Positions 3,823 to 55,412 of a stretch of DNA of 64,000 bases are shown here, in pieces; position 1 is the stretch's first letter; each line of letters begins with the position of its first letter. A model generated the notes under the pieces. It worked only from the letters and a program-made list of their open reading frames with translations, was not told the origin of the DNA and did not search any database. The position numbers and the translations under genes are program-made. Origin of the DNA: Haliotis cracherodii (Eukaryota). Location: the NCBI RefSeq assembly GCF_022045235.1, contig NW_027266308.1:22072001-22136000 (forward strand), given 5' to 3'.

Positions 3823-3852
3823 TGTATTTCACGCATGTCTAACATCGATGCC

Positions 3853-3883
3853 ATGGCGGAGGGAAGTTTCAAGTACGATCCAG
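3853..3883 (+). CDS. OTUB1: OTUB1 exon 1 (MAEGSFKYDP)
   Basis: GCCATGG Kozak context, CAG|GTAGAT donor, phase 1 fits exon 2; in-frame upstream ATG at 3835 is an alternative start. Confidence 0.75.
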
Positions 3884-4687: not shown

Positions 4688-4740
4688 ATAAAAATTATGA
4701 TGAAGAAACACTGGCACAGCAAAGAAATATTGAAAAGGAG
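4688..4740 (+). CDS. OTUB1: OTUB1 exon 2
   Basis: tttacag|...|gtaaga; DKNYDEETLAQQRNIEKE resembles the OTUB1 N-terminal helix YDEAIMAQQDRIQQE. Confidence 0.88.
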
Positions 4741-7159
4741 GTAAGACATTTTATCGCTTAGTTGTAGCAGTTTCACTCTCCTTCTTTTCTCATGTTTCTT
4801 TTCCGAACATATACCAAATTAATCATAATCTGATCTATATCTCTAATTTGGTATCATGATGTTGGTTGTATTTTTAGGGCGGGTAGGTGAACTGAACAAT
4901 ATATGTGTTCTCTCAGAAATAATGAAAATTATACCATGTATACAGCACTCCGATCACCATCAGTCATCATTTATGGTTATTTTAGATGACTGATATCTGT
5001 ATACACAGGTTAATATGTCCGACTGATTACAATTAACGTCAGTGTTTAACTAATTGACAAAACATTACTAGACATAGTGATTTACAATTTCAATTACATC
5101 CTGTTACGCTAGGCCTATTATTGTATAATCTGAAATAATTGTCTTATAAAATATTCAGGAACTGGCAATCAGCTGTACATTTTCTCCCATGATCTACCAG
5201 TGATGCAGTCATAGAATATCCTCTAGAATAACTTAGACAATGTTTCATGCAATGATCAAACAGAGAATATTATGTCTGAAACTTTATATTTTGTGATATG
5301 TTATTAATCCTGCTTTTACAAAATACATTAAAAAATAATCTTTAGAGTTGCACTTTGGAATGTTACTGGTTATTTATTATGTATGGAACAGTGTGACCAT
5401 TTAACAGTGATCTTGACATGAAGACGTCCTGCTGTCTTACCGTTTAATAGAACATAAATAATAGCAAACATGATTTTTCTGAATCAAAGTGTGGCATTTA
5501 TGGTACATATATCTATTCTCTGACAACTAAAGTTTGTTTCAAGGCATCAGTAGCGGTAACCATGGTAATCAAGGAACAGTGAGTTGGTACAAGCTGCCAA
5601 TCAGTTCTCACACGACTTCTGTGAAATTAATGTAAATAACACTGAATGGAATCAAACAAGATATACATTGAACACTTTTTATAACCAAGCTGTGTAATAA
5701 CAGGACTAACTTACGTACTTCAGTACAGATTTTTTTACTCTTTTTTTTGTTACATACTTGCGGTTGTCACTCTTGTTACATGTTGATTCCCAAATTGAAA
5801 CAATATGTTAACCCAGAAATCTGTATGTAAAAGAGTTTAGTGTGAAACCAACAAACAACCAACAAACAACCAACAAGTGGTATTCAATCGATAAGGGTGT
5901 GCGGTATTACCGGTACACCGGTATATTGTGGTGCAAATCTTCAGCAACTCGTATTGTGATACGTTTGTAAATGTAGCAATATATTAGGGGAAATATAGAT
6001 AAGTATATTTAAGCTACCATGTGACCGTATCATCCCCCTTGATCGTTGCTGGTATACAAAATGGCAGATGATTTGACATTGTCTCAAATAACTAATCAAT
6101 AAGGGACACCTACTGATGGTATCTGACATTAATACAGGGTATAACTCTGATTAACTCATGAAAATGTAAATCGGCAATATATTGCAATACGTATTGCATT
6201 ACAGGTTAAAGTATGGTAATATATTGCAATACGTATCGCAATACTGGTTAAGGTATAGCAATACATTGAAATACAAAATCCAGGTCAATACACATCCCTA
6301 ACAATCAACAATTGTATTACAAATTAACTAGGTTTACAAATCAATACAAATGACTGCACAGCAATTACAATGGCAGTACACACTAGAATGGTAGTACAAT
6401 ATTCAGTGACAGTATACATGTGAGAGCAGCTCAAGTTATTAGAATGAGCGCAGAAAAAAATATCTTTGTGTTCAAAGGGCCGCACAACAAGGTTCATCAT
6501 ACCAAATTCTTGACAAGAAATATTAAATTCCTGAAATTCAAGTCATGATTAGATCTTATAGTACAGTACACTACACCATTTCATTATTTTACAGGACCAT
6601 CATATTTCCCTTAAAATTAGTAATTGGGGGTCCTCTGGACCCTAGTTTTGTAGGGCAAGGTAAAACCCTGATGTATATTATACACAAAAGATTATGCTGT
6701 TTTCAGTTGTTTTGTTTTCGCCACCAATTTCACACATGGTAGCATCAATGTGCTGCTTAAAACAGCCTTCAAGTTATTGTCAGCCAGTACAATTATTGCT
6801 ATTTTGAGTTCAATTGTTTACATGTTTACCATATAAAGTCTGTGATTGTGCAGTGAGGTGGTGCAATAAAACAAATGAAATTTTTAAATTATTTTTTTTT
6901 ATTCACTGATTATGTTTTTCATTGTAACCTGTCAAGCTACAAAATGAGCTAAATGCTGTGTCTTTATCAGAACAAATGATCCATTGGCGATAATTCAGTC
7001 AAAATCAATGTCATATTAATATTATTTTTTCAAATACTTGAATAAATTTTATAAAGTGCTATTTTGTCCTATTGTTTATGTTTTTATGTTTTTTGTGTGT
7101 GCACAAGTTCTGTGCAACTGATTATGGTTCTAGATATGGCCTTTTAATATTGGTCTGTT

Positions 7160-8836
7160 ATTTGTATTGTGTATGTACAGATTACAGACCGTTAGTCACT
7201 GGTCAGTACACAGATGAGTGTACATATTGTGTATGTACAGATCACATACAGTCACTGGTCAGTACACAGATGAGTGTATGTATTGTGTATGTACAGATCA
7301 CAGACAGTCACTGGTCAGTACACAGATTAGTGTATGTATTGTGTATGTACAGATCACACACAGTCACTGGTCAGTACACAGATGAGTGTATGTATTGTGT
7401 ATGTACAGATCACAGACAGTCACTGGTCAGTACACAGATGAGTGTATGTACTGTGTATGTACAGATCACATACAGTCACTGGTCAGTAAACAGCTGAGTG
7501 TACATATTGTGTATCTTCAGATCACAGACAGTCACTGGTCAGTACACAGATGAGTGTACATATTGTGTATGTACAGATCACAGACAGTCACTGGTCAGTA
7601 AACAGCTGAGTGTATGTATTGTGTATGTACAGATCACAGACAGTCAGTTGCTGGTCAGTAAACAGCTGAGTATATGTATTGTGTATGTTCAGATCACAGA
7701 CAGTCACTGATCAGTAAACAGCTGAGTGTATGTATTGTGTATGTACAGGTCACAGACAGTCACTGGTCAGTAAACAGCTGAGTGTATGTATTGTGTATGT
7801 ACAGGTCACAGACAGTCAGTTTCTGGTCAGTGAACAGCTGAGTGTATGTATTGTGTATGTACAGATGACAGACAGTCAGTTGCTGGTCAGTAAACAGCTG
7901 AGTGTATGTATTGTGTATGTACAGATGACAGACAGTCACTGGTCAGTAAACAGCTGAGTATATGTATTGTGTATGTACAGATGACAGACAGTCAGTTGCT
8001 GGTCAGTAAACAGCTGAGTGTATGTATTGTGTATGTACAGATCACAGACAGTCACTGGTCAGTACACAGATGAGTGTACATATTGTGTATGTACAGATGA
8101 CAGACAGTCACTGGCCAGTAAACAGCTGAGTGTATGTATTGTGTATGTACAGATGACAGACAGTCACTGGTCAGTACACAGATGAGTGTATGTATTGTGT
8201 ATGTACAGATCACAGACAGTCACTGGTCAGTAAACAGCTGAGTATATGTATTGTGTATGTACAGATCACATACAGTCACTGGTCAGTAAACAGCTGAGTG
8301 TATGTATTGTGTATGTACAGATCACAGACAGTCAGTTGCTGGTCAATAAACAGCTGAGTATATGTATTGTGTATGTGCAGATCACAGACAGTCAGTTGCT
8401 AGTCAGTGAACAGCTGAGTATATGTATTGTGTATGTACAGATCACAGACAGTCACTGGTCAGTAAACAGCTGAGTGTATGTATTGTGTATGTACAGATCA
8501 TAGACAGTCAGTTGCTGGTCAGTAAACAGCTGAGTGTATGTATTGTGTATGTACAGATCATAGACAGTCAGTTGCTAGTCAGTAAACAGCTGAGTGTATG
8601 TATTGTGTATGTACAGATCACAGTCAGTCAGTTGCTGGTCAGTAAACAGCTGAGTGTATGTATTGTGTATGTACAGATCACAGACAGTCAGTTGCTAGTC
8701 AGTAAACAGCTGAGTGTATGTATTGTGTATGTACAGATCACAGTCAGTCAGTTGCTGGTCAGTAAACAGCTGAGTGTATGTATTGTGTATGTACAGATCA
8801 CAGACAGTCAGTTGCTGGTCAGTGAACAGCTGAGTG
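7160..8836 (+). repeat. 56/60-bp minisatellite (about 29 units) made of the OTUB1 exon-3 acceptor plus first 13 codons
   Basis: Unit tgtattgtgtatgtacag|atcacagacagtca(gttg)ctggtcagtaaacagctgagtgta; the last unit runs directly into the real exon. Confidence 0.95.
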
Positions 8837-8895
8837 TGGAGGAACTCATCGAGGAGTATGCCCAGGAAGATGAGGTTTACCGCAAGAAGTTGGAT
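8797..8895 (+). CDS. OTUB1: OTUB1 exon 3
   Basis: ITDSQLLVSEQLSVEELIEEYAQEDEVYRKKLD, similar to OTUB1 IAVQNPLVSERLELSVLYKEYAEDDNIYQQKIK; gtaagt donor; phase 0/0. Confidence 0.88.
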
Positions 8896-9102
8896 GTAAG
8901 TGGAGTTTAATGTTGATAATCAAGTGCAGGAAGTATTGGAAATCAACACAAATGTGATGAAAGTTTTGTCAGCTTTGTGGTAAAAATATATCTGAAAATA
9001 GCAACCTGACAGGGTCTGAGTTAGATATGTATAAACATTGAAAAATGCAACCTAATATGTATGTCTACCTGGACCAAGTGTGTGTGAATAAATTGAATTA
9101 TG

Positions 9103-9935
9103 TGTCACCCCTGTTGCTCTGAGTGGTCCTTGGGTGTATATGTTGATATATTTCCTCACCCCTGGTGCTAGGAGTGGTCCTTGGGTGTACATGTTGATAT
9201 ATTTCCTCACCCCTGGTGCTAGGAGTGGTCCTTGGGTGTACATGTTGATATATTTCCTCACCCCTGGTGCTAGGAGTGGTCCTTGGGTGTACATGTTGAT
9301 ATATTTCCTCACCCCTGGTGCTAGGAGTGGTCCTTGGGTGTACATGTTGATATATTTCCTCACCCCTGTTGCTCCGAGTGGTCCTTGGGTGTACATGTTG
9401 ATATATTTCCTCACCCCTGGTGCTAGGAGTGGTCCTTGGGTGTACATGTTGATATTTCCTCACCCCTGTTGCTCTGAGTGGTCCTTGGGTGTACATATTG
9501 ATATATTTCCTCACCCCTGTTGCTTGAGTGGTCCTTGGGTGTAGATGTTGATATTTCCTCACCCCTGTTGCTTCGAGTGGTCCTTTGGTGTACATGTTGA
9601 TATTTCCTCACCCCTGTTGCTCCGGGTGTACATGTTGATTATTTCCTCATCCCTGGTGCTACAAGTGGTCCTTGGGTGTATATGTTGATATTTCCTCACC
9701 CCTGTTGCTCCGAGTGGTCCTTGGGTGTACATGTTGATATATTTCCTCACCCCTGGTGCTCTGAGTGGTCCTTGGGTGTACATGTTGATAAATTTCTTCA
9801 CCCCTGTTGCTACGAGTGGTCCTTGGGTGTACATGTTGATATATTTCCTCACCCCTGGTGCTCCGAGTGGTCCTTGGGTGTACATGTTGATAAATTTCCT
9901 CACCCCTGTTGCTACGAGTGGTCCTTGGGTGTACA
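9103..9935. repeat. 49-51-bp minisatellite (about 16 units) in OTUB1 intron 3
   Basis: Unit gagtggtccttgggtgtacatgttgatatatttcctcacccctggtgctag. Confidence 0.95.
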
Positions 9936-9978
9936 TATTTTACATTTATTACACTTAATTACATGCATGCTATTGCAC

Positions 9979-10440: not shown

Positions 10441-10559
10441 GACATGCGGTCAAGGTACAAACAGGTGAGGAAGACACGAGGGGATGGAAATTGCTTTTTC
10501 CGGGCATTTGGTTTTTCCTACCTGGAGAAGCTTCTCACAGATGATACAGACATGACAAG
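10441..10559 (+). CDS. OTUB1: OTUB1 exon 4 (catalytic Cys)
   Basis: DMRSRYKQVRKTRGDGNCFFRAFGFSYLEKLL, the otubain RKTRxDGNCFxRAF catalytic motif. Confidence 0.97.
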
Positions 10560-10983: not shown

Positions 10984-11068
10984 GTTCAAAGAGATAGCCA
11001 GCAAGAGTAAAGATGAGTTAGTCACTCTTGGCTTTCCACAGTTTACCATTGAAGATTTTCATGAAACA
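10984..11068 (+). CDS. OTUB1: OTUB1 exon 5
   Basis: FKEIASKSKDELVTLGFPQFTIEDFHET (OTUB1 SKEDLVSQGFTEFTIEDFHNT); phase 2/0. Confidence 0.95.
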
Positions 11069-25348: not shown

Positions 25349-25676
25349 TCACCGTGCTGTAATACGGTGTATTTATATTATAAAATAACCAGAAACAAAG
25401 AGTAGTCCGATTCTGAGTATGTTCCAAGAACAAAATAGCTGAAAAGGTTTTCATGTCAGAGGTCAAATATTAGTAGAGAGCCATTCTAATGGGTGTTAGG
25501 CTACCGGTGGTTCACTTCGTCAAGATGAATAATTTGGCACGTGGCAATTAATACAAAATCATATTATAATACAAATTATACAAATCCAACTAAAGCTCCT
25601 CTTCATGGGATATTACCCCCCATGCATAAATAGTCTTACCAGTATGTCATAATACATTGTTTGACAGAGCACCGAC

Positions 25677-25760
25677 CTTGTTCATCAGGGGAGACAAGTT
25701 TTGACATCACTGAACGCATCATCGCAGACGGTGCTTCACTGAAGATCCCAACCACGGCCG
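25677..25760 (-). CDS. SLC46-like paralog 1, 84-nt exon
   Basis: AAVVGIFSEAPSAMMRSVMSKLVSPDEQG, the SLC46 RSxxSKLV..EQG motif; phase 1/1. Confidence 0.92.
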
Positions 25761-25881
25761 CTGAATGGAATGAATAGAGACATTACAAAGTGGCAACTAT
25801 TCGTGATAATACATTTTCAAGAACGAAAACAACAATTTCAGAAAAAAAATAAGACGTTAAAAAAGTTCTGGTAAGCCATAC

Positions 25882-26991
25882 CTATGATGACAAGGACGCT
25901 ACTCTGGCCGATTCCTAACAGCACCAGGAACAGCATGTTGGAAACACATCCGATGATGGCGATGTTGACTTCCGACAGGCGGCGCGCAAGGAAGCGCGTG
26001 AGGGCGAGTATGCAGACCCAATCAACAATGGTCCTGGCCGCGGTATAGCCGGTGATCTCTACTTTATTCCAGCAGAAGGGCGTGGCCAGGAGGTAGAGCG
26101 TCAGTACCGTGGCTTTGATCAGCTCCACGGAGAAGGACGTAAAGAAGGTCATCAAGGACACAATCAATTTCCACCGCCTTTTCTCAGGAGTGTCTTTGGT
26201 GTAAAACTGTATGCTTGTTTTGAATGATTTCAAATGTTCCTTGAACGTGAGGCTACCTTGGGGTCGATGTCTACGCGTTTCTGGAAATATGAATATCGTA
26301 AACAGGAGACATGCACTAGATAATGCGATTAAAAAGTATAACGGCTGTTTAAAGTTGACCTCCTCTATCCAAATTCCTGCAACCAAGGCCCCCATCGCTG
26401 AGCCTAAGCTCATCACTGCCTGAATTATAGCCATCCTCAATGCTCGCTTGGGTCCCGCGGTTGTAATGTCGGCCGCACATCCAAATAACGCCGTCAACAT
26501 TGTCCCAAAACCACCCGAAAACCCCTCGATTGCATTGCCTATGAATAGGTATGCGAGCGGTAGGTCCAGCTCGAACACGATGAGATACACTATCTCCTTT
26601 GATAGAAGACCACAAATCGGCATTAACATCGACAGTTTCCTACCGTGTCTGTCAGAGAAGGACCCAAGAACGATTGTTTGGATGATTCCAGGGAATGTGC
26701 TAGCAAAGATGAGGAATACTGTATAGTCAGCAGCTTTGCTCTGTATCTTGTTCTGCAGCCCTGTGTCGGACGAGTTACCTGCCTTGGGGCTGCAGGCGTC
26801 GGTCGTGCTTTTGTTGACGCCGCCATATTCTCTTGTTATTTTGTCGACTATGTAGAACTGTGTCAAGGGTAGAGTCATGACGATACCGCAGATGAAGAGG
26901 AATGCGACCACCTCCACTGGGACGTAGTGTCTGAGTGGAGGTAACGACATGCTGGTTTTGCCTTCGTTTTGGATCAGGGATTTGCGTTCAT
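25882..26991 (-). CDS. SLC46 (PCFT/SLC46A3-like) MFS transporter paralog 1, large exon
   Basis: Multiple TM helices, MFS motif A GSFSDRHGRK, AADIT, FPET, PFCW; acceptor at 26992-93 and donor at 25880-81. Confidence 0.92.
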
Positions 26992-33825: not shown

Positions 33826-34881
33826 ATGTCATGTTGTCCTCAAGTGGGGGCCTGGAGACGCCAAGCCGACTCGCTCTGGTGGAAATGCCTTTGTTTCTGT
33901 ACTACGTCTGCCACACCAACGTCCTGCTTACCCAGTTCTACCTCCACGACAAGTATATGCGTTCCTATACCGGAAATGGGTCTTCAGTCAACGCCTCGAA
34001 GGACATAGTCGACGCCATCCAAGCAGACACGACCATGACCTTTACATATATATTAATAACTTTATTATGTCCAGCCATTTTTGTGAACTTGTTAGTCGGG
34101 CCACTTTCTGATCAGCTTGGAAGGAAAGCGTTTCTTATTATGGTTAATGTCGCTTCCTTTGTGAAAGTTAACATTGATATCATTGTCATGCACTTTGATC
34201 TGCATGTTGGATACCTTTTTATTGGAAACATGATTTATGGACTGGGTGGCAGCTACGCTCTGATGTTAACATGCGGACTAGCAATGGTAGCTGACGTTAC
34301 ACCCATTGGGCCACAGCGATCATTCCGCATCACAACGTCATGTGCAGCCATCGCTGTTGGCATCAGTTTGGGTATCTCCATAACGGGTGTCCTCATTGAT
34401 TCGTTTGGATTTGTATTCCCGGCTATACTGTACGCTGTGGCCAGTTTCACCAACGTTTTGTTTGTGTGGTGTTTCTTGCCTGAAACAGTGCCTGGTGGGT
34501 CATTGAGGTCCCTCTGTTTATCAGACATTATCGAGAATATACAAAGAGGCATTGACGTGTATGGGCGGAGTATCCCGAGTCTGCGACGCGTTTCCCTGCT
34601 CCTCTCTCTATTGGCCGGCGTCCTGCTTCTGTCCATCATGAAGGTGGAAATGACTCTGTCCAGTCTGTTCCTCCTCGCTCCACCATTCAATTGGACTTCT
34701 ACACATGTCGCCCTCTACTACGGGGTGAAGACAGTGGTAAGCTGGGCCATCATACTCGCGTCAACTAAGTGTCTGCTTAGATACTGCTCCGACCTCACAC
34801 TAGCCATATGCGGATGTCTCTCGCTGTCTCTGGACGTCCTTCTCATAGGCATTGCGGACACAGATTCAGTGATGTATACTG
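33826..34881 (+). CDS. SLC46-like MFS transporter paralog 2, large exon
   Basis: GPLSDQLGRK, VADVT, LPET, PFNW; phase-1 acceptor ggcag as in the paralogs (in-frame ATG at 33831); gtaagt donor; upstream exon not confidently located. Confidence 0.9.
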
Positions 34882-35097
34882 GTAAGTTGAAATGGGGTTC
34901 GATTCCCAGAATCAGCACAATTCATTAATCCCATTGTTACATTCCCCGTGTGTTGCTGGAACATTCCTGAAACGGCATGACGGATTCCTAATCCACCCTT
35001 CAACTATTTAATGCCTTAACAACGTAATCCAATCACTTCTACAATGATGAAGACGATAATGTTCATAATTAATATACACATGTCTGTTTACATCCAG

Positions 35098-35181
35098 CGG
35101 CCTGTGTCGGGTTGTACGGTGACCAGGGCATCTCAATGGTGAGAACCTTCATGTCGAAGTGTGTGCCTCTCCAAGAACAAG
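35098..35181 (+). CDS. SLC46-like paralog 2, 84-nt exon
   Basis: AACVGLYGDQGISMVRTFMSKCVPLQEQG. Confidence 0.9.
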
Positions 35182-35498
35182 GTTGGTTTAAAGTATAAAT
35201 GTACCCAGAATTAGAACGCACAGTTTGAAAGCTTTGAATCATTCCAAGCAGTCCCAGCTTTTGGTGTCTACATTTCGCAGTTTACTTCGAAGATTTCATG
35301 CGAGTGTCATGCGACTCTTGCTCAGACATTGTTAGTTCAGACTTAAAGTATTCAGTGCCTCAGCAAAAGCTTTCCAAGGGTTTCATCGTCGATATGTGGA
35401 GGACATTTCCAAATTTGACTGACGGTCACCAATGATATATCCGATGCAATTCCCTTTTTGGACCGGTATCATCCCTATGTAATTCATTATCATATCAG

Positions 35499-35770
35499 GG
35501 GGGCGCGGGTGGCCCAGTTGTCTGAGGCGGCGCGATTCGCTGTGCAATTGCGTCCCTTGGGCACGCCAGAAACCTATGATTGTGTTCGAATCGCGGTTCG
35601 CCCCGATTATGTTTCTAGGTTTGTCAGCACCATGACCGTGCTCACGGGTTTCACCGAAGTGGTAAACGTCTGAGACATGCATCATTTCGGGTTTTCCTCC
35701 CACATTAAGCTGACACGTCGCGATATAACTGGGATACTGTTAAGAGCGGCGTTAAACCCAATTCACTCAC
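35499..35770 (+). mobile_element. SINE family B with 15-bp TSD
   Basis: TSD tcattatcatatcag at 35484-35498 and 35771-35785. Confidence 0.9.
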
Positions 35771-36019
35771 TCATTATCATATCAGCAAATGATATTGTCT
35801 GAATCGTAATATGGACATTTCTTATGATTACGGAAGGGCTTTGTCGCTTTTATTAATATTCGGCCATATTTGTGCTGAATAGGTTACGCATTGGAACTCT
35901 TTTGTTGTAATATTAAAACAATAGTTCTTAATGTTTCTTTTTTCCCAAAGATAAGAGATTTGAAGATAATTAGGTACATGTTTCGGAGACAGAACTAATT
36001 TCATGAATGCTTTGCTAAG

Positions 36020-36176
36020 GAGCCCTATTCTCTACTCTGAACGTGTGCCAGTTAATCTGCTACCTGTTCGTTACTCTGGCCATCAACCTCACCTACCGAG
36101 GCACCCTGGATGTCCGCCCTGGCGTCGCATACTTCGTCATGACTGCCGTAGCTGCAGTTACCGTCGGCATACTTGG
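36020..36176 (+). CDS. SLC46-like paralog 2, 157-nt exon
   Basis: GALFSTLNVCQLICYLFVTLAINLTYRGTLDVRPGVAYFVMTAVAAVTVGIL; AAG acceptor; length identical to the paralogs. Confidence 0.88.
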
Positions 36177-36899
36177 GTAGGTATATGTCATACAGAAGGC
36201 CAACCAAGTGTATTTGTTCACTGACAATAAGCCAAAGAATAAGACACAATTAAATGAGACATCATATTAATTTAACTCAAATGTGTGGACTGTTCTGTCA
36301 AACAAATCACATTGTCATTATTAGCTTGCTCTCTCTGTGCTTTTGCTGTCAATGTGTATCAGTATTTTGTTTATATTCATATTGCCTTGGAGATAGTTCC
36401 AGTTTATTCCCAAATACGTGGTTTGTGACTGAAAAATAAAAAAAATCCCGTTAAAAGGTTCTTGAAGAGGCCGCGGGTACCTATGTCATGTCAGTAGATA
36501 TTCCAACACAGGGTAGATTCCCAATTATCCGAATCCCGGGATCCAATATATAGTTTCTCTTACCGTGGGACTCGTTGTAAAAGTGATTTTTAGAAAGTGA
36601 TTCCAGGTTTGTCTCCCCTCCCGAACCTTTGTTAAAAAAGGTCCCTAGTACCCAATGTGTGTCTCTTCTTGGGATTCCAGGGTAGAAAATAGACCCCCAG
36701 CATGTATCGCGCCGTTGAGAGTCCGCCGTGGAAGCAGTCGGTTTCCTAAATGAGTTTAAAATATAATCCTAACACTGCCCTAGGTAATGTACTTTCTCTT
36801 ACCTGTGTTCCGAATGTACAGATACCCCCGGAAACAGGCTTAACGAAGTCTAACTTTCAAACTTTACACTGTCATAACAAACAGCATATTCTGTTTCAG

Positions 36900-36960
36900 A
36901 TATATCAACATAAGAAACAAGGGATTCAATTGGTCCCTGGTAAACTACAGTCCACATTGA
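36900..36960 (+). CDS. SLC46-like paralog 2, probable last exon
   Basis: ctgtttcag acceptor; phase 2 gives (G)YINIRNKGFNWSLVNYSPH*; AATAAA at about 36988. Confidence 0.55.
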
Positions 36961-42847: not shown

Positions 42848-44425
42848 TGGGTAAGGTCTCGAGAGATAAAATTCGTCACATCTGTTGCAGGTAAGGTCTT
42901 GAGAGACGCAATGTGCCACATCTATTGCAGGTAAGGTCTAGAGAGATGCTATTTGCCACATATATTGCAGGTAAGGTCTTGAGAGATGCTATTTGCCACA
43001 TTTATTGCAGGTAAGGTCTTGAGAGATGCTATTTGCCACATTTTTTGCAGGTAAGGTCTTGAGAGATGCTATTTGTCACATCTATTGCAGGTAAGGTCTT
43101 GAGAGATGCTATTTGCCACATCTATTGCAGGAAAGGTCTTGAGAGATGCTATTTGTCACACCTATTGCAGGTAAGGTCTTGAGAGACGCAATGTGCCACA
43201 TCTATTGCAGGTAAGGTCTTGAGAGATGCTATTTGCCACACCTATTGCAGGTAAGGTCTTGAGAGATGCTATTTGTCACACCTATTGCAGGTAAGGTCTT
43301 GAGAGATGCTATTTGTCACACCTATTGCAGGTAAGGTCTTGAGAGATGCTACTTGCCACATATGTTGCAGGTAAGGTCTAGAGAGATGCTATTTGTCACA
43401 TTTATTGCAGGTAAGGTCTTGAGAGATGCTCTTTGTCACATCTATTGCAGGTAAGGTCTTGAGAGACGCAAGGTGCCACATCTATTGCAGGTAAGGTCTT
43501 GAGAGATGCTATTTGCCACACCTATTGCAGGTAAGGTCTTGGGAGATGCTATCTGTCACACCTATTGCAGGTAATGTCTTGAGAGATGCTATTTGTCACA
43601 CCTATTGCAGGTAAGGTCTTGAGAGATGCTACTTGCCACATATGTTGCAGGTAAGGTCTAGAGAGATGCTATTTGTCACATTTATTGCAGGTAAGGTCTT
43701 GAGAGATGCTATTTGTCACACCTATTGCAGGTAAGGTCTTGGGAGATGATATATGCCACATCTATTGCAGGTAAAGTCTTGAGAGATGCTATTTGTCACA
43801 CCTATTGCAGGTAAGGTCTTGGGAGATGCTATCTGTCACACCTATTGCAGGTAATGTCTTGAGAGATGCTATTTGTCACACCTATTGCAGGTAAGGTCTT
43901 GAGAGATGCTACTTGCCACATATGTTGCAGGTAAGGTCTAGAGAGATGCTATTTGTCACACCTATTGCAGGTAAGGTCTTGAGAGATGCTATCTGTCACA
44001 CCTATTGCAGGTAAGGTCTTGAGAGATGCTATTTGCCACATCTATTGCAGGTAAGGTCTTGAGAGGTCCTATTTGTCACATATATTGCAGGTAAGGTCTT
44101 GAGAGATGCTATTTGTCACACCTATTGCAGGTAAGGTCTTGAGAGATGCTATATGCCACATCTATTGCAGGTAAAGTCTTGAGAGATGCTATTTGTCACA
44201 CCTATTGCAGGTAAGGTCTTGAGAGATGCTATCTGTCACACCTATTGCAGGTAAGGTCTTGAGAGATGCTATTTGCCACATCTATTGCAGGTAAGGTCTT
44301 GAGAGATGCTCTTTGTCACATCTATTGCAGGTAAGGTCTTGAGAGGTCCTATTTGTCACATATATTGCAGGTAAGGTCTTGAGAGATGATATTTGCCACA
44401 TCTGTTGCAGGTTAGGTCTTGAGAT
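42848..44425 (+). repeat. 40-bp minisatellite (39 units), each carrying TTGCAG|GTAAG
   Basis: Unit ctattgcaggtaaggtcttgagagatgctatttgtcacac; CAG ends every 40 bp from 42890 to 44410. Confidence 0.97.
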
Positions 44426-46162: not shown

Positions 46163-47224
46163 ATTATGGTAGCATAGATCGCACCGCCCCAACTCCTGGA
46201 CGACCTCGCTACGTGGCCGTGGAGGTCGTAGGACTCCTGTACTTCACCAACACCTACTATCTGATATACCACCAACAGTTCTACCTCCGCGAGAGGGCAA
46301 AGCTGGAGTATGATGTGAACCATCTCAGCGAGAGCCTCATGAATAACAGCACAGATCGAGAGAACACCATACAAGCCAAAGCTACTACTGATTTGATTCT
46401 CATAACTCTATGCCTGATCCTACCTGCTAGTTTAACTACTCTCCTGGTGGGGGGACTCTCGGACGTGTTTGGGCGGAAGATGCTAATGTATCTCTCACTA
46501 ACAGGGGCAATGATTTATTGTATCAATATGATAATTGTTGTTCGGTACAGTTTAAGCGTCTACTTCTTGTGTATAGGAGCGGTGTTACATGGATTGGGAG
46601 GTTACTTTGCAACAATGATGACAGCCTTGTTTAGCACTGTAGCGGACATCACTGAACCAGGGGATAGGAGATCATGGCGTATGATTCTGCTCTCCTTCAT
46701 CCTGTTCCTGGCCTCTGCTCTTGGAGCGTCTATTAGTGGAATCTGGATTGACAGAGCCGGCTACCTACAACCTCTGTACCTTAGTATTGCTCTCTGCATT
46801 GCATCGCTTTTTGTAGTCATAATTTTCATTCCAGAAACTCACCAGGCGGCGAAATCAAAACATGTACTGAAAGAAAATTTATCGATTATTAAACAAGGAT
46901 TTAACTTTTACTTCGCCCCGTCAAAAACTCGCACGTTAGTCGGTTTGTGCCTCATGACATTCATCACATCTTTTTCTGTGGGCTTTACGAAACAGATGAT
47001 CCTGAACCTGTTCCTGCTCACCAGCCCCTTCTTCTGGTCGACGACCCATATCACTCTGTACTCTGCCCTTAGGGTGTTGCTGTCTTGGTTCGTCATCTTA
47101 CTGACGACAGGGTGTCTCAGACGAGTCATGTCCGCCATCAGCCTGACTCTCGTTGGCGTCCTGTCAAACATCGTGTCACTTGTCCTCATCGCGACCAGCA
47201 CCAACGACCCCATGATATATATAG
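46163..47224 (+). CDS. SLC46-like MFS transporter paralog 3, large exon
   Basis: GGLSDVFGRK, VADIT, IPET, PFFW; gcttcag acceptor, ATAG|gtgaga donor. Confidence 0.92.
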
Positions 47225-47324
47225 GTGAGAGTACATGCATCTACGTACTTGTATTACATTCATCCCATACAGCAACATGGTACCCTGTCTCGTCGTATAC
47301 GAGCTCCGTGTTCTTGTCGATAGG

Positions 47325-48090
47325 ACCGCCTCCGTGGTCTAGTGGTAGAGCGTCCACCCGGAGAGCGTCAAACCAAAAGATGTTAAAAGATGGTACTTGT
47401 CGTTACCCTGTCTCGGCAATAAGGGGATAAAACAACGACTGGTGGCTCGGAGACAGTATACTGTGTCTGAGTGGGGTATTCATGTTGAACTGCGGCAACT
47501 GTTCTCAGTTGGCTAGCTATCACTATAAATCGGCATCAGTCCGGAANNNNNNNNNNNNNNNNNNNNNNNNNNNNNNNNNNNNNNNNNNNNNNNNNNNNNN
47601 NNNNNNNNNNNNNNNNNNNNNNNNNNNNNNNNNNNNNNNNNNNNNNNNNNNNNNNNNNNNNNNNNNNNNNNNNNNNNNNNNNNNNNNNNNNNNNNNNNNN
47701 NNNNNNNNNNNNNNNNNNNNNNNNNNNNNNNNNNNNNNNNNNNNGCAATGATCTTGGACGCGACGTTAAACCCAATTTTCCCCACCTCTAGTCAGGGGAG
47801 CGGAAGGTCCGTGGTTCGATCCACCGTCTGTGGCATACCAAACGACGTTTCAAAATGATACTTGTTGTAACCTTGCATTGTGCTCAGCATACAACAAGGA
47901 CTAGTCGACTTTGAATCAGTATACTTTGTCTGAGCGTGGTATTCATGACAAATTGTATCAAGCACTACAAACCGGGATACGGCCGGACTTGTACAATCAC
48001 AAGCTCGCACGCACGACCATTGCACACGCACAACTGCTTTGAAAGTGCAATAATCTTGAACACGACGTTAAATCCTAAAAAGAAACTCAC
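47325..48090 (+). mobile_element. Two tandem SINE family D copies; the first spans the assembly gap
   Basis: ccgcctccgtggtctagtggtagagcg head, accaaa..aaa(g)atg(g/a)tacttgt core and gcaat(g/a)atcttg..cgacgttaaa tail, each seen twice. Confidence 0.7.
47547..47744. other. Assembly gap (198 N)
   Basis: Run of N. Confidence 1.
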
Positions 48091-48243
48091 CTCAACTCTC
48101 GGGCTCACCACATCCTTCTACTCCAACCCACGGTCTCTTCATATTCATGAAGTGATGTATTCCTTGACGTGAAGTAGCTGATAATAGTATCACACCATGG
48201 CACTAATCTACTTCCATGTGCTAACTACAATCTTCTGTTTCAG

Positions 48244-48327
48244 CGGGTGTGGCGGGCGTATATGCCCAAGCAACAGGCCCTTTAATGAGAGGGTTTATGT
48301 CTAGTCTCGCAAGTCCTGACCAGCAAG
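48244..48327 (+). CDS. SLC46-like paralog 3, 84-nt exon
   Basis: AGVAGVYAQATGPLMRGFMSSLASPDQQG; ctgtttcag acceptor, gtaagc donor. Confidence 0.92.
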
Positions 48328-48919
48328 GTAAGCCAGCTGTTTCAAGAACAAATTTTTCAAAGTATTCCCCAGAAACCCCTCTCCCTGAGCAGACACTATG
48401 GGAGACCAAACAATCACTTTCAACAGCACGATCACGCGCGGTAACACTATTACCTTGGTTATGTAATATTATGCGGAATGAAAAAAAAGAAGATTTTTTA
48501 CACCCACTCTATTTAACGAGCTTTTTGTCAAATCATGGATGTACAGCTGTTACAAACTTTGTGTTGTTACTCTCAAACATTAAAGCTATATTGCATTTTC
48601 ATTAAAGAATCGGAAATGAAGCCGCCGTGTACTGACATTGTATTTAATATTATTGCAATCTCAATATTAGGTACTTCATATATCTATAAAAGCGAACCAA
48701 TATCTCTGATATCTCATTTGTCCAACCCTTTACCTGTCGAGACCTTAATAACAATAACGTTGACTTTGCCCTGTAGAGCTATATGAGCTTACGATCTTCA
48801 ACTTGGAAACCGTAAAATGCTATGCTGCTTTGTCGAAAGCGACTGACCTATCCCGTAAGGTACATTATAAGTTGTAGCAGGATCCCTCGGGGTAGATGGG
48901 GTTATATGCGTCCCTCTTT

Positions 48920-49440
48920 ATGTCTTATACCACTCGCCGGAGCAGCCTATGTAGCTGGGATATAGCATAGGTCTTATACCACTCGCCGGAGCAGCCTTTG
49001 TAGCTGGGATATAGCATAGGTCTTATACCACTCGCCGGAGCAGCCTATGTAGCTGGGATATAGCATAGGTCTTATACCGCTCGCCGGAGCAGCCTATGTA
49101 GCTGGGATATAGCATAGGTCTTATACCACTCGCCGGAGCGACCTATATAGCTGAGATATAGCATAGGTCTTATACCACTCGCCGGAGCAGCCTTTGTAGC
49201 TGGGATATAGCATAGGTCTTATACCACTCGCCGGAGCAGCCTATGTAGCTGGGATATAGCATAGGTCTTATACCACTCGCCGGAGCAGCCTTTGTAGCTG
49301 AGATATAGCATAGGTCTTATACCACTCGCCGGAGCAGCCTTTGTAGCTGAGATATAGCATAGGTCTTATATCACTCGCCGGAGCAGCCTTTGTAGCTGGG
49401 ATATTGCATAGGTCTTATACCACTCGCTGGGATATAGCAT
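48920..49440. repeat. 49-bp minisatellite (about 10 units) resembling the shared SINE 3' tail
   Basis: Unit gtcttataccactcgccggagcagcctatgtagctgggatatagcatag. Confidence 0.92.
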
Positions 49441-49968
49441 AATTCGGTGGATAAATCTCTCTGACTCACGTAATCACCAACCCACATGTAAGTAGCACAT
49501 GGGAAGGGGAGACATGATATATGTCATGAATGACGTGTACGAGGATACATTTTCTTCAGTGAGTACATGATTGTATGGACACGAGTTCTAAAAAGGCATT
49601 ATCGTCTTTTTCGAAAATAATTCAGATACTTTTGGGAATTAACGGTTTAACAATGGCGTGTGTCACACCTCCATGTCAGAATGATGAGATCTGATTGGTC
49701 TACGTGTTTACTTGCGGAAAGACTGTGATGGCATGCAAAATATATTAATGAAAACCCAATGGTTTTTTTGATCGTCAAACAAGTGCTGTTGCACGTGTAC
49801 GTCATGATGGTGTGTTTCGGCGCGTCAACTTCTTAAAACGTTCTTTTGACAGATCCTCTGGATTGGTAAAAGTGGGTTTTGGTATGGGCCGGCTAATCTG
49901 CCTTTATTTAAGTTCCATTTGTTCCATATTGGGATCTTAAGCTGGCCACTGTGGAACCTGTGTAATTG

Positions 49969-50102
49969 AGGATTGAGTGACTAATATTTTTTTTGGTTCA
50001 TTGGGGTATGAATCGAACTTTTGTAAGAATTGTACAGTTTGCACATCGGTTTTTCGATTCATACCCCAATGAACCGAAAGAAAATAGACAGTCAATCCTT
50101 AA
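49969..50102. repeat. Long imperfect palindrome (MITE-like)
   Basis: aggattga..ttggttcattggggtatgaatcgaa / ttcgattcataccccaatgaaccgaa..tcaatcct. Confidence 0.7.
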
Positions 50103-51554
50103 AATTAAATTCGACAACGTAAAACATATTTTATCTACAATAGTTTAACAAAAAACAGTTAAATATATCAAAGCAGACAAAAATGACGAGATTGATAAAT
50201 ATTCCAGATGTATGAATACATACTGTGACGTGAAATGAATCAGGTGATCGTTTAATTTATGCACATAACTTTACACGCCTACACAGTCAGTAGCCAATCA
50301 ACGGAGAGTAGGGTCAAAACAATGTTCATATGACCTGTTAATTAAGGCAAAAGGCGAGAAGAAGTGAAACAGTCAGACTGTAATATGCCCAGGAGAAGGT
50401 GTCTCTTTCAAATGACATGGTCAGTTACCGCCAGATTCAAACATGACTTCCCTGTAAACGGGAAAACACAGTTGGAAAAATGCTAGTTAGAAATGAAACC
50501 CGAAGACATGAAAGTTGAACCGAGGCGAGCGGGAAAGACAGGCGAGCGAGCCTGCACGTTTGCTGTTTCATTCATTCTCGGTAGTTTGTACAACGAATAT
50601 GCATCAAAGTCGCTAAATGTCCTGTGCATAACGATACACGTGAGCAGAAAGGGAATTTCCTCGACTGTAATATTGGGATTCCCCGACATTACGCAGTAAT
50701 AAAAGTAGTGCGCCTCGGTGGGCGTGGCTAAATTTTTTACATTCATTGAAATGAACGCAGTAACACGTGACCAATTCAGACAATCAGAACGAAAATTTGA
50801 TTATACCGATCTATACCGAAAGTATTACAGTATTAAATTAAAGACTTTGTCCATAAATTGTGTCTACTTTGAAAACTTCGATTCGCTGTTGTGTTGACTC
50901 CAACTGTTTTCCGAGACGATTCTCCGCCACTGGGTGCTTGAACCTTCCATTTCCTCGTACAGTAATAAACCCCCCAAAGTTATTAACAAGATGCTGCTGA
51001 TGAAGACACATTCGTTCTGCTTACTGTTGTGCACGGACAAAGTCTGGATGCAGTCACGAGCGTCACCTGACCGGTTTTGTAATTGCTCGCAACTTAAACA
51101 AATTTGTTCCCCACTGGCTTTCACAAATTATGCTTATTTGAAATTTAACATGACAAAGTGAACATGTCATGCATGTTTGGACTTCTAGTGTCGACCTTGA
51201 TCAAATTCACAACTTAATTTCAATTTGCATGAAGAATGTACGAGAAAGATGACATGATGCTACGAACAACTATTTAGCTGCCATTCTAAATGCTGTTATC
51301 TAACTTTCAATGTAACCACCTAAATACTGATTGCTCCTGGTCTGCTTAAAAATCAAATTTTGACCAACCAAACCAGTGATTGACTGCATGAGCAACGATC
51401 TACACCGTCGGGGCATAATGACATACGATCATCAAGGTCACACATTCTAACCACCCCAACCAAAACATGACTTAGGGCTAACTTGGGCTACATGCCGTTG
51501 GTTCAAGAAACAAGGATCCTGCAAAAGAGTGTTTGTAGTTTCAATCTGTTTCAG

Positions 51555-51711
51555 GTGCCGTGTTTTGTGTGCTTGATCTCAGCGAGATGGTCTCCACTGC
51601 AGTGTTTACAGTGGCCGGAGGTCTGATCTACGCGGCAACACTAGCGATATTTCCGGGCTTTGTATTCATTGCACTCGCTCTCATCCTACTCTTTGTTGCC
51701 GTGGCTCTGTT
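51555..51711 (+). CDS. SLC46-like paralog 3, 157-nt exon
   Basis: GAVFCVLDLSEMVSTAVFTVAGGLIYAATLAIFPGFVFIALALILLFVAVAL; gtgagt donor. Confidence 0.92.
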
Positions 51712-51729
51712 GTGAGTATACATTGTGTT

Positions 51730-54440
51730 TGTTCTGGTAGTGACAGCACTACTGATTGTTGCCATCACGTGTTTGTTCCTCTTTGTGTGTTTGACCACAA
51801 GCCTAGCTTGTGGTAGTGGCATCTCTAGTGTGAGTAAACATAAGCCAGGTTTCTGCTTGTGGCAGATCTGGTGTGTGTAAATACAGGCCACGCTCCTGGT
51901 AGTGGCAGATCTAGTGTGAGTAAATACAGGCCACGCTCCTGGTAGTGGCAGATCTAGTGTGAGTAAACATAAGCCAGGTTTCTGCTTGTGGCAGATCTGG
52001 TGTGTGTAAATACAGGCCACACTCCTGGTCGTGGCAGATCTAGTGTGAGTAAATACAGGCCACGCTCCTGGTAGTGGCAGATCTAGTGTGAGTAAATACA
52101 GGCCACGCTCCTGGTAGTGGCAGATCTAGTGTGTGTAAATACAGGCCACGCTCCTGGTAGTCGCAGGTCTGGTGTGAGTAAATACAGGTCACGCTCCTGG
52201 TAGTGGCAGATCTGGTGTGAGTAAATACAGGCCACGCTCCTGGTAGTGGCAGATCTAGTGTGAGTAAATACAGGCCACGCTCCTGGTAGTGGCAGATCTA
52301 GTGTGTGTAAATACAGGCCACGCTCCTGGTAGTCGCAGGTCTGGTGTGAGTAAACACAGGTCACGCTCCTGGTAGTGGCAGATCTGGTGTGTGTAAATAC
52401 AGGCCACGCTCCTGGTAGTCGCAGGTCTGGTGTGAGTAAATACAGGTCACGCTCCTGGTAGTGGCAGATCTAGTGTGTGTAAATACAGGCCACGCTCCTG
52501 GTAGTTTCAGGTCTGGTGTGAGTAAATACAGGTCAGCTCTTGGAAGTGGCAGATCTTGTGTGAGTTAACACAGGCCACGCTCCTGGTAGTGGCAGATCTA
52601 GTGTGAGTAAACACAGGTCACGCTCCTGGTAGTGGCAGATCTGGTGTGTGTAAATACAGGCCACGCTCCTGGTAGTCGCAGGTCTGGTGTGAGTAAATAC
52701 AGGCCACGCTCCTGGTAGTCGCAGGTCTGGTGTGAGTAAATACAGGTCAGCTCTTGGAAGTGGCAGATCTTGTGTGAGTAAACACAGGCCACGCTCCTGG
52801 TAGTGGCAGACCTAGTGTGAGTAAACACAGGCCACGCTCCTGGTAGTGGCAGATCTAGTGTGAGTAAATACAGGTCACGCTCCTGGTAGTGGCAGATCTA
52901 GTGTGAGTAAATACAGGTCACGCTCCTGGTAGTGGCAGATCTGGTGTGTGTAAACACAGGTCACGCTCCTGGTAGTCGCAGGTCTGGTGTGAGTAAATAC
53001 AGGTCAGCTCTTGGAAGTGGCAGATCTTGTGTGAGTAAACACAGGCCACGCTCCTGGTAGTGGCAGATCTAGTGTGAGTAAATACAGGCCACGCTCCTGG
53101 TAGTGGCAGATCTGGTGTGTGTAAATACAGGCCACGCTCCTGGTAGTTTCAGGTCTGGTGTGAGTAAATACAGGTCACGCTCCTGGTAGTGGCAGATCTA
53201 GTGTGAGTAAACACAGGTCACGCTCCTGGTAGTGGCAGATCTAGTGTGAGTAAACACAGGCCACACTCCTGGTCGTGGCAGATCTAGTGTGAGTAAACAC
53301 AGGCCACGCTCCTGGTAGTGGCAGACCTAGTGTGAGTAAATACAGGCCACGCTCCTGGTAGTGGCAGATCTAGTGTGAGTAAACACAGGCCACGCTCCTG
53401 GTAGTGGCAGATCTAGTGTGAGTAAAAACACAGGTCACGCTCCTGGTAGTGGCAGATCTGGTGTGAGTAAACACAGGTCACCTCTTGGTAGTGGCAGATC
53501 TGGTGTGAGTAAACACAGGTCACCTCTTGGAAGTGGCAGATACAGGGTGGTGTGAGTAAACACAGGCCACGGTCCTGGTAGTGTCAGGCCTAGTGTGAGC
53601 AGACACAGTCCAGGCTCCTGGTAGTGACAGCACTATTGAGCGTAGCCATCACGTGTTTGTACCTCTTAGGGTGTCGTTCGTAGTAGTGGCAGCTCTAGTG
53701 TGAGTAAAGACAAGCCACGTTCCTGGTAGTGACAGCTCTAGTGTGAGCATACACAGGCCACGCTCCTGGTAGTGACAGACCTAGTGTGAGTATACACTGT
53801 CCACGATCCTGGTAGTGGCAGCTCTAGTGTGAATAAACACAGGCCACGCTCCTGGTAGTGGCAGATCTAGTGTGAGTAAACACAGGTCACGCTTCCGGTA
53901 GCGGCAGGCCTAGTGTGAGTAAACACAGGCCACACTCCTGGTAGTGACAGATCTAGTGTGTTTAAACACATACCACACTCCTGGCAGTGACAGACCTTGA
54001 GTGAGTAAACACATACCATACTCCTGGTAGTGACAGACCTTGAGTGAGTAAACACATACCACACTCCTGGTAGTGGCAGACCTAGAGTTAGTCAACACAG
54101 GCCACACTCCTGGCAGTGACAGATCTAGTGTGTTTAAACACATACCATACTCCTGGTAGTGACAGACCTTGAGGGGGTAAACACATACCACACTCCTGGT
54201 AGTGGCAGACCTAGAGTTAGTCAACACAGGCCACACTCCTGGTAGTGACAGACCTTGAGTGAGTAAACACAGGCCACACTCCTGGTAGTGGCAGACCTAG
54301 AGTTAGTCAACACAGGCCACACTCCTGGTAGTGACAGACCTTGAGTTAGTCAACACAGGCCACACTATGGTACTGACAGACCTTGAGTTAGTCAACATAG
54401 GCCACGCTTCTGGCAGCAGCAGACCTTGTGTGAGTAAACA
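51730..54440 (+). repeat. 43-bp minisatellite (about 60 units) starting just after the splice donor; most units contain GTGAGT
   Basis: Unit ctggtagtggcagatctagtgtgagtaaatacaggccacgctc. Confidence 0.95.
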
Positions 54441-54866
54441 TCTCTGAAGAATAATAAGCATGCTCCTGGAGGTGGACGATTAAGTGTGAGACAGACCTGT
54501 TCTATATAGTGTCATGTCATGCGTCTTCTTGTGTGCAGTGTTGAGACATTTGCTGTATTCCACGTAATCGAAGTTGTCTGAGCATACCGTAAGACGGCCT
54601 AACGGTGCCACTTTGTCAGCTTGATTTTTTAAATAGAAGTTTCTTTATGTTTCAATTATATGCTTATGTTTTCGATATCTCGAGGTTTTCTTGTTACTTC
54701 GATTATATTTTCGTAATTTCAATAATGTTTTGTTACTTCGAGGTTTTTTTCATTACTTCGCATATTTTCAGATTTTTTCTATTATTTACTCGTCAGTTCA
54801 AGTCTATTTCAAAAACTTGAAATTTCGAATTTTCCTCATTGCTTCCATTATTCCGATTATTCTCAG

Positions 54867-55030
54867 GGGCAGTGGGGTAGCCAAGTGGCTAAAGCCTGCG
54901 TTCGTCACGTCGAAGGCCCGGGTTCGATTCCCCATATGGGTACAATATATGGTACCCATGTCTGATGTCCCCCGACGTGATATTGCTGGAATATTGAACA
55001 AAATCGGCGTAAAACCACACTCACACACTC
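54867..55030 (+). mobile_element. SINE family C copy, inserted in a probable MITE (about 54590-55216)
   Basis: A/B boxes and tail; flanking imperfect inverted repeats ggcctaacggtgcca / tggcgccattaggc. Confidence 0.75.
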
Positions 55031-55363
55031 GATCATTTTCTCGTTGAAATGACGAGAGAAACAAAAACGAAATTTCGAGTTTTTGAGATAAGCTTGACAT
55101 TACCAGGAAATAAACGAAGTAACCAGAAAAAACCTCGAGGAGACATATAAAAGAGAGAGAATATAATCAAAATAACTAGAAACTGATTAAAAAAATGGCG
55201 CCATTAGGCTTTCGTATGTCGTCAATGATATTACTTTGCCCACGATTAAAGTTTTAACGATAGTACTCTTAACTATTGACAATGCTGCAACAATCACATT
55301 TCATTCGTGATCATTCTTGCCAATTGTAGATTAATGAACAATGCATTTCACCATTTTCTTCAG

Positions 55364-55412
55364 CATCGCCAAACGACTCCAGGACCGCGAGGGAGACGGA
55401 AGCATAGATTAG
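55364..55412 (+). CDS. SLC46-like paralog 3, probable last exon
   Basis: ccattttcttcag acceptor; phase 2 gives (F)IAKRLQDREGDGSID*; AATAAA at 55451; an acceptor at 55329 is an alternative. Confidence 0.5.

Follow-up and report, generated by a model that had tools for sequence, protein, structure and literature searches.

The window analysed here, a stretch of 64,000 nucleotides of the Haliotis cracherodii genome (contig NW_027266308.1, positions 22,072,001 to 22,136,000 of the forward strand), contains the gene OTUB1, whose last exon matches Haliotis OTUB1 at 100% identity. Eight exons with AG/GT borders were defined on the plus strand: exon 1 (coding part from the first ATG, 3835..3883, preceding exon 2 in transcript contigs), exon 2 (4688..4740, donor GTAAGA at 4741), exon 3 (99 nt, 8797..8895, donor GTAAGT at 8896) and exons 4-8 (10441-10559, 10984-11068, 12359-12462, 13424-13514 and 13991-14188). 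Exons 2 and 3 are placed by both translation and contigs, exons 1 and 4-8 by the spliced translation, which is 265 aa long if exon 3 starts at 8797 and shows 0 differences over 265 aa from the RefSeq protein P0121, the RefSeq OTUB1 of both H. rufescens and H. cracherodii. Three tandem arrays that apparently span no splice site lie in or just after the gene: a 51 bp array in intron 3 (9105-9936), a 29 bp array near the exon 6 donor (12611-12736) and a 42 bp array downstream of the last OTUB1 exon (14766-16768).

Exon 3 is preceded by a minisatellite that spans the exon boundary (7160..8835, plus strand). TRF reported a single array at 7163-8837 (period 56, 29 copies, 92% matches, score 2462), and splitting on the acceptor motif gave 29 acceptor-type CAG ends between 7180 and 8796, i.e. 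28 copies and the real one, confirming the host gene, the exon and the approximately 28 extra acceptors given in a preliminary description of this DNA. Of the 28 units between acceptors, 12 are 60 bp long and 16 are 56 bp long. The unit had been described as a 39-nt exon copy followed by a 21-nt spacer, which is correct for the 60-bp units; in the 56-bp units the exon-3 head is 35 nt, and the exact 21-nt intron-end stretch is found before 18 of the 29 acceptors, namely the real acceptor and 17 others. Similarly, the 56-bp units are present upstream as described, but are interspersed with seven 60-bp units. The first unit is the most divergent (6 substitutions), and the first 30 nt of true exon 3 are unique among the 29, with a G at nt 28 separating the real exon from the five nearest copies.

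The five 60-bp units adjoining the exon (8497..8796, plus strand) are in frame with exon 3 and stop-free; the frame arithmetic given earlier was right, and the acceptors at 8496, 8556, 8616, 8676 and 8736 are open into exon 3 and would contribute from +100 to +20 aa, whereas seven acceptors farther upstream are frame-compatible by distance but run into stops. The copy after 8676 is the only one of these five that reads exactly ITDSQLLVSKQLS, the peptide quoted previously; the other four read IIDS.. or ITVS.. Ten of the twelve 60-bp copies encode QLL, as does the window protein, while H. asinina and H. rubra OTUB1 (each 265 aa) have QSL, suggesting from sequence comparison that the array is young or was recently homogenised. 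A T-rich segment before copy 1 (7131..7180, plus strand) with a branch-point-like TTAAT at -37 is the likely original 3′ end of intron 2, now stranded at the far side of the array, and a branch-point-like CTGAG at -27 of the real acceptor (8770..8774, plus strand) lies in the exon-copy part of unit 28 and is a pattern match only. A search of the genome DNA, which skips common words and so does not prove uniqueness, found the array unit at the OTUB1 locus only. The array as described is that of one assembled allele. Its formation likely began with a duplication of approximately 60 bp across the intron 2/exon 3 junction, followed by expansion through slippage or unequal exchange; a 4-nt deletion gave rise to the 56-bp variant, which then spread through the distal part.

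In order to see which acceptor is used, Logan contigs of seven sequencing runs were inspected; the RNA nature of these runs was guessed, none being on record as RNA, and their contigs do join exons. In three of the four runs with contigs over 8737-9100 (X1, X2 and X8), one contig, of depth 46-61, passed from exon 2 directly to 8797 and continued as far as exon 4 without any inserted letters; X8 comes from a different organism, in which the gene may lack the array. In three of the four runs inspected over exon 2 (X2, X3 and X4), the sole exit from exon 2 was a 30-nt string present after acceptor 8796 alone. Thus, in 5 of 7 runs, representing two studies with four of the five runs from one study, exon 2 was joined to the last copy only, and normal splicing is undisturbed in the main form, rare forms being invisible in assembled contigs, which lose rare variants. 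The other two runs did not span the junction, as the X5 contig begins at 8833 and X6 has no contig on exon 2. No contig of the five informative runs joined exon 2 to any of the copies, with the same proviso that contigs drop rare forms, and no exon 2 letters were found in the contigs at sequence before 8737. X2 also has an 86-nt array-type contig that lacks exon 2 letters; its depth is 3.7, that of the mRNA contig 53, and we interpret it as intronic or genomic in origin. We therefore consider it very likely that the array is a minisatellite within intron 2, built from repeats of the OTUB1 intron 2/exon 3 junction, and that only its last copy serves as acceptor in the transcripts seen. The 28 copies would then leave with intron 2 and the protein would be normal, so that the repeat is probably harmless and, as it stands, of little consequence for OTUB1; lancelets are known to carry arrays of this type, which is also common in this abalone genome.

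The preliminary description had instead suggested a ladder of isoforms, for which no support was found: every contig that leaves exon 2 enters the last acceptor, and the Haliotis proteins of 265 aa lack an insertion. The full-length Haliotis OTUB1 proteins in the cluster (three sequences, four species) are all 265 aa, and extra modules are absent from these three sequences. An alternative reading is that the nearest in-frame acceptors leak in a minority of transcripts, giving OTUB1 with 20-100 more residues that are tolerated or tuned by array length. Each of the five nearest acceptors is intact, leads into exon 3 in an open reading frame, shares its 21 upstream bases with the real acceptor and would, if used, escape nonsense-mediated decay; the 60-bp form is clustered next to the exon beyond random order (last five units all 60 bp, P=0.008); and in human genes with comparable arrays the nearest copies are used to some extent, with the two nearest donor copies of 6-16 and CBS used as well as the exon-adjacent one (PMC1557585, in the part cited) and one unit of ABCA7 intron 18 retained in some transcripts (PMC5954066, in the part cited). 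Abalone OTUB1 aligns to human OTUB1 without gaps in the region of the exon 2-3 junction, and this junction adjoins the part that corresponds in the alignment to the human N-terminal helix region, a helix that touches proximal ubiquitin (PMC4295869, in the part cited). However, exon 2 was joined to no copy in the contigs of the five informative runs, the spacer peptide was found in 0 of 123 fetched proteins, and in-frame neighbours are no commoner than chance among 13 boundary-spanning arrays (see below). Leakage of this kind is consequently judged unlikely, and it is somewhat more doubtful still that such minority transcripts yield stable proteins, 20-100 residues longer, in amounts governed by array length. 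If they did, the added residues would sit where the N-terminal ubiquitin/E2-binding segment of OTUB1 ends, and the array would be a single working example out of thousands of junction-seeded arrays in abalone. A functional alternative-isoform reading is not supported by these data, minor use being possible.

The other source of a ladder would be splicing of each 60-bp unit as a 39-nt micro-exon cassette with its own acceptor and an AGT|GTATGT donor, adding 13 aa per step. A GT does stand at the start of the spacer in nine 60-bp units, and this donor fits 6 of 9 consensus positions, but all seven real OTUB1 donors score 7 or 8 of 9, and the GT is present at the same spot in the real exon and needs no special explanation. 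An intron of 21 nt is shorter than the usual animal minimum, and no such path was seen among the contigs. The 39-nt ladder with its 21-nt intron was rejected on the contigs and donor scores, and is considered very improbable.

The choice of the last of 29 near-identical acceptors had been called unexplained, which overlooks both a described class of minisatellites and work on intron 7 of human F7 (see below). The first copy, which keeps the original intron end, was not seen used in the contigs, and this disfavours a choice by upstream strength or by scanning for the first AG. On its upstream side, the real acceptor shares its 21 bases with 17 others, and its branch-point-like word lies within the preceding unit; the features unique to the last copy all lie downstream, making exon definition the most likely selector. 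Only the last acceptor is followed by the purine-rich rest of exon 3 and by the GTAAGT donor 99 nt on, and exon definition, with a short-range enhancer, would select it on this basis. Nine purine enhancer-like words were counted in nt 40-99 of the exon and 0 in nt 1-39, compared to 7 across the 1,616-nt array. We infer that selection of the last copy by exon definition and an enhancer is likely. RNA structure could in principle make the same choice, if internal acceptors pair with neighbouring units and leave the last one more open: the predicted mean unpaired probability over the last 15 nt is 0.46 for both the last and the first acceptor and 0.28-0.42 for the 27 internal ones. This difference is small and comes from a prediction at 37 C, the equally open first acceptor was not seen used, and the F7 array has no structural explanation in the part of PMC1557585 cited, so that selection by structure appears very improbable. 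The locus is a natural test piece for 3′ splice-site choice, with 29 near-identical acceptors and only the last seen used.

Selection against frameshifting neighbours had been offered as the reason for in-frame units next to the exon. The clustering of the last five units is real, yet a frame-neutral variant is equally polarised, being confined to the distal part of the array (rho -0.59, P=0.001) and missing from the last ten units (P=0.014). Like neighbours and distinct edge units, the turnover pattern of a minisatellite, are both present, and 60-bp units near the exon are then what we infer to be the expected gradient, 60 bp being the form of the real exon. A second acceptor-spanning array in the same gene, in intron 6 (12825..13424, plus strand; 54/58-bp units, 11 acceptor positions ending at exon 7), breaks the frame: its nearest copies are +58, +116 and +170 nt from exon 7, all out of frame, and the last acceptor is again the one used in the RefSeq protein. 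Across boundary-spanning arrays, a small sample of 13 including those from the survey described below, frame is kept by the nearest intact copy in 6 (P=0.24, tested against one third), and in 4 this copy is in frame and also open; among the five acceptor arrays it is in frame in one only, the OTUB1 exon 3 array. With the polarised neutral marker, the frame-breaking neighbours of exon 7 and the 1 in 5 acceptor arrays within this small 13-array count, selection on frame need not be invoked to account for the in-frame run.

The OTUB1 array is a mirage (boundary-spanning) minisatellite, a class already described in amphioxus, where the parts of PMC3087553 and PMC3902484 cited list Adh3, troponin C, the globins BflGb6 and BflGb9, and PGBD5 as hosts, trace the definition to Canestro et al. 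2002 and state that splicing is left undisturbed. As in the OTUB1 array, amphioxus mirages repeat the intron end and the start of the next exon in tandem inside the intron, keep the AG and yield a normal mRNA. The OTUB1 units of 56 and 60 bp are within the 10-160 bp reported for mirage units (PMC3087553, in the part cited), and the splice dinucleotide is kept, with 29 of 29 acceptors ending in CAG. In contrast to the amphioxus cases, the host of the OTUB1 array is a gastropod mollusc, the copies number 28 rather than the 3-6 of BflGb6, and five neighbours happen to be in frame. Human VNTRs likewise offer a series of many near-identical splice sites, with the exon-adjacent one winning: in F7 IVS7 (37 bp), lamin B2 and PDGF only the exon-adjacent donor is used (PMC1557585, in the part cited), and any leakage in this group concerns the nearest copies. 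These are, however, donor arrays that follow an exon, whereas the OTUB1 array is an acceptor array that precedes one. In the Rogers model of intron gain by tandem duplication of proto-splice sites, as cited in the part of PMC3087553 used here, a unit with AG and GT could become a boundary; unlike in that model, OTUB1 has gained no new exon or intron and keeps its eight exons and 265-aa product. An ordinary intronic minisatellite has been reported in abalone (PMC6905558, in the part cited), and no paper on mirages in molluscs was found in the literature searched, which leaves out most subscription journals.

The frequency of such arrays in this genome was estimated on kinesin genes, with 123 of 125 motor matches kept and two with many stops dropped before counting. 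The 51 stretches surveyed total 375,511 bp, two of them overlapping by approximately 2.8 kb, and contain 71 arrays that make up 14.5% of the DNA. An array lies within 80 bp of 18 kinesin matches, and by inspection 7 arrays span a splice site; 70 further exon-like kinesin pieces added 4 more. This gives 11 boundary-spanning arrays (8 donor, 3 acceptor; L036, L039, L044, L049 (two), L051, L052, L055, L056, L073 and L080) on 193 kinesin exon pieces, approximately 6%, in 9 of 38 gene clusters, with splice sites taken from homology rather than transcripts and spanning called by eye. In three of the donor arrays (L055, L056 and L080) the nearest copy keeps the frame and is open. L072 was left out as doubtful, having 0 intact copies, and further arrays close to exons, L063, L064 and L075 among them, were judged to cross no boundary. 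A crude random-seeding null, which ignores composition, expects 3.6 arrays compared to the 11 observed (P=0.001); this excess of about three times in a small sample is a lead, not a result, and minisatellites may be biased to start at splice junctions. Extrapolated from 11 of 193, abalone would offer thousands of natural splice-site competition experiments, and such arrays can mislead gene prediction and exon-primed PCR.

Separately from the kinesin count, 117 myosin-family matches were found, dominated by one paralogue cluster at G000:C12:64.58-64.96 Mb, where over a dozen myosin-head genes, their introns short, stand in tandem. One kinesin match, on a separate contig (G000:C74:4486-5433), is full-length and intronless and contains 20 TAA/TAG stops, which is what a different genetic code, as in a ciliate-like contaminant, or a dead copy would give.

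Two further arrays in the window carry splice-site-like words. A 43-bp x 61 array (51811-54438) starts approximately 100 bp after a donor at ~51712 and repeats a donor-like GTGAGT, with 37 similar sites within 3 kb; it is possibly an older donor-side mirage, and its host gene is membrane-transporter-like, a label that comes from reading the translation. A 40-bp x 39 array (42850-44424), shortly after a possible donor at ~42819, contains 33 CAG|GTAAG words, each resembling both an acceptor and a donor. At 25640-26950 (minus strand), 33830-36930 (plus strand) and 46165-55400 (plus strand) lie three genes for similar multi-pass membrane proteins, each with a single large exon; together they look like an MFS/SLC46-type cluster.
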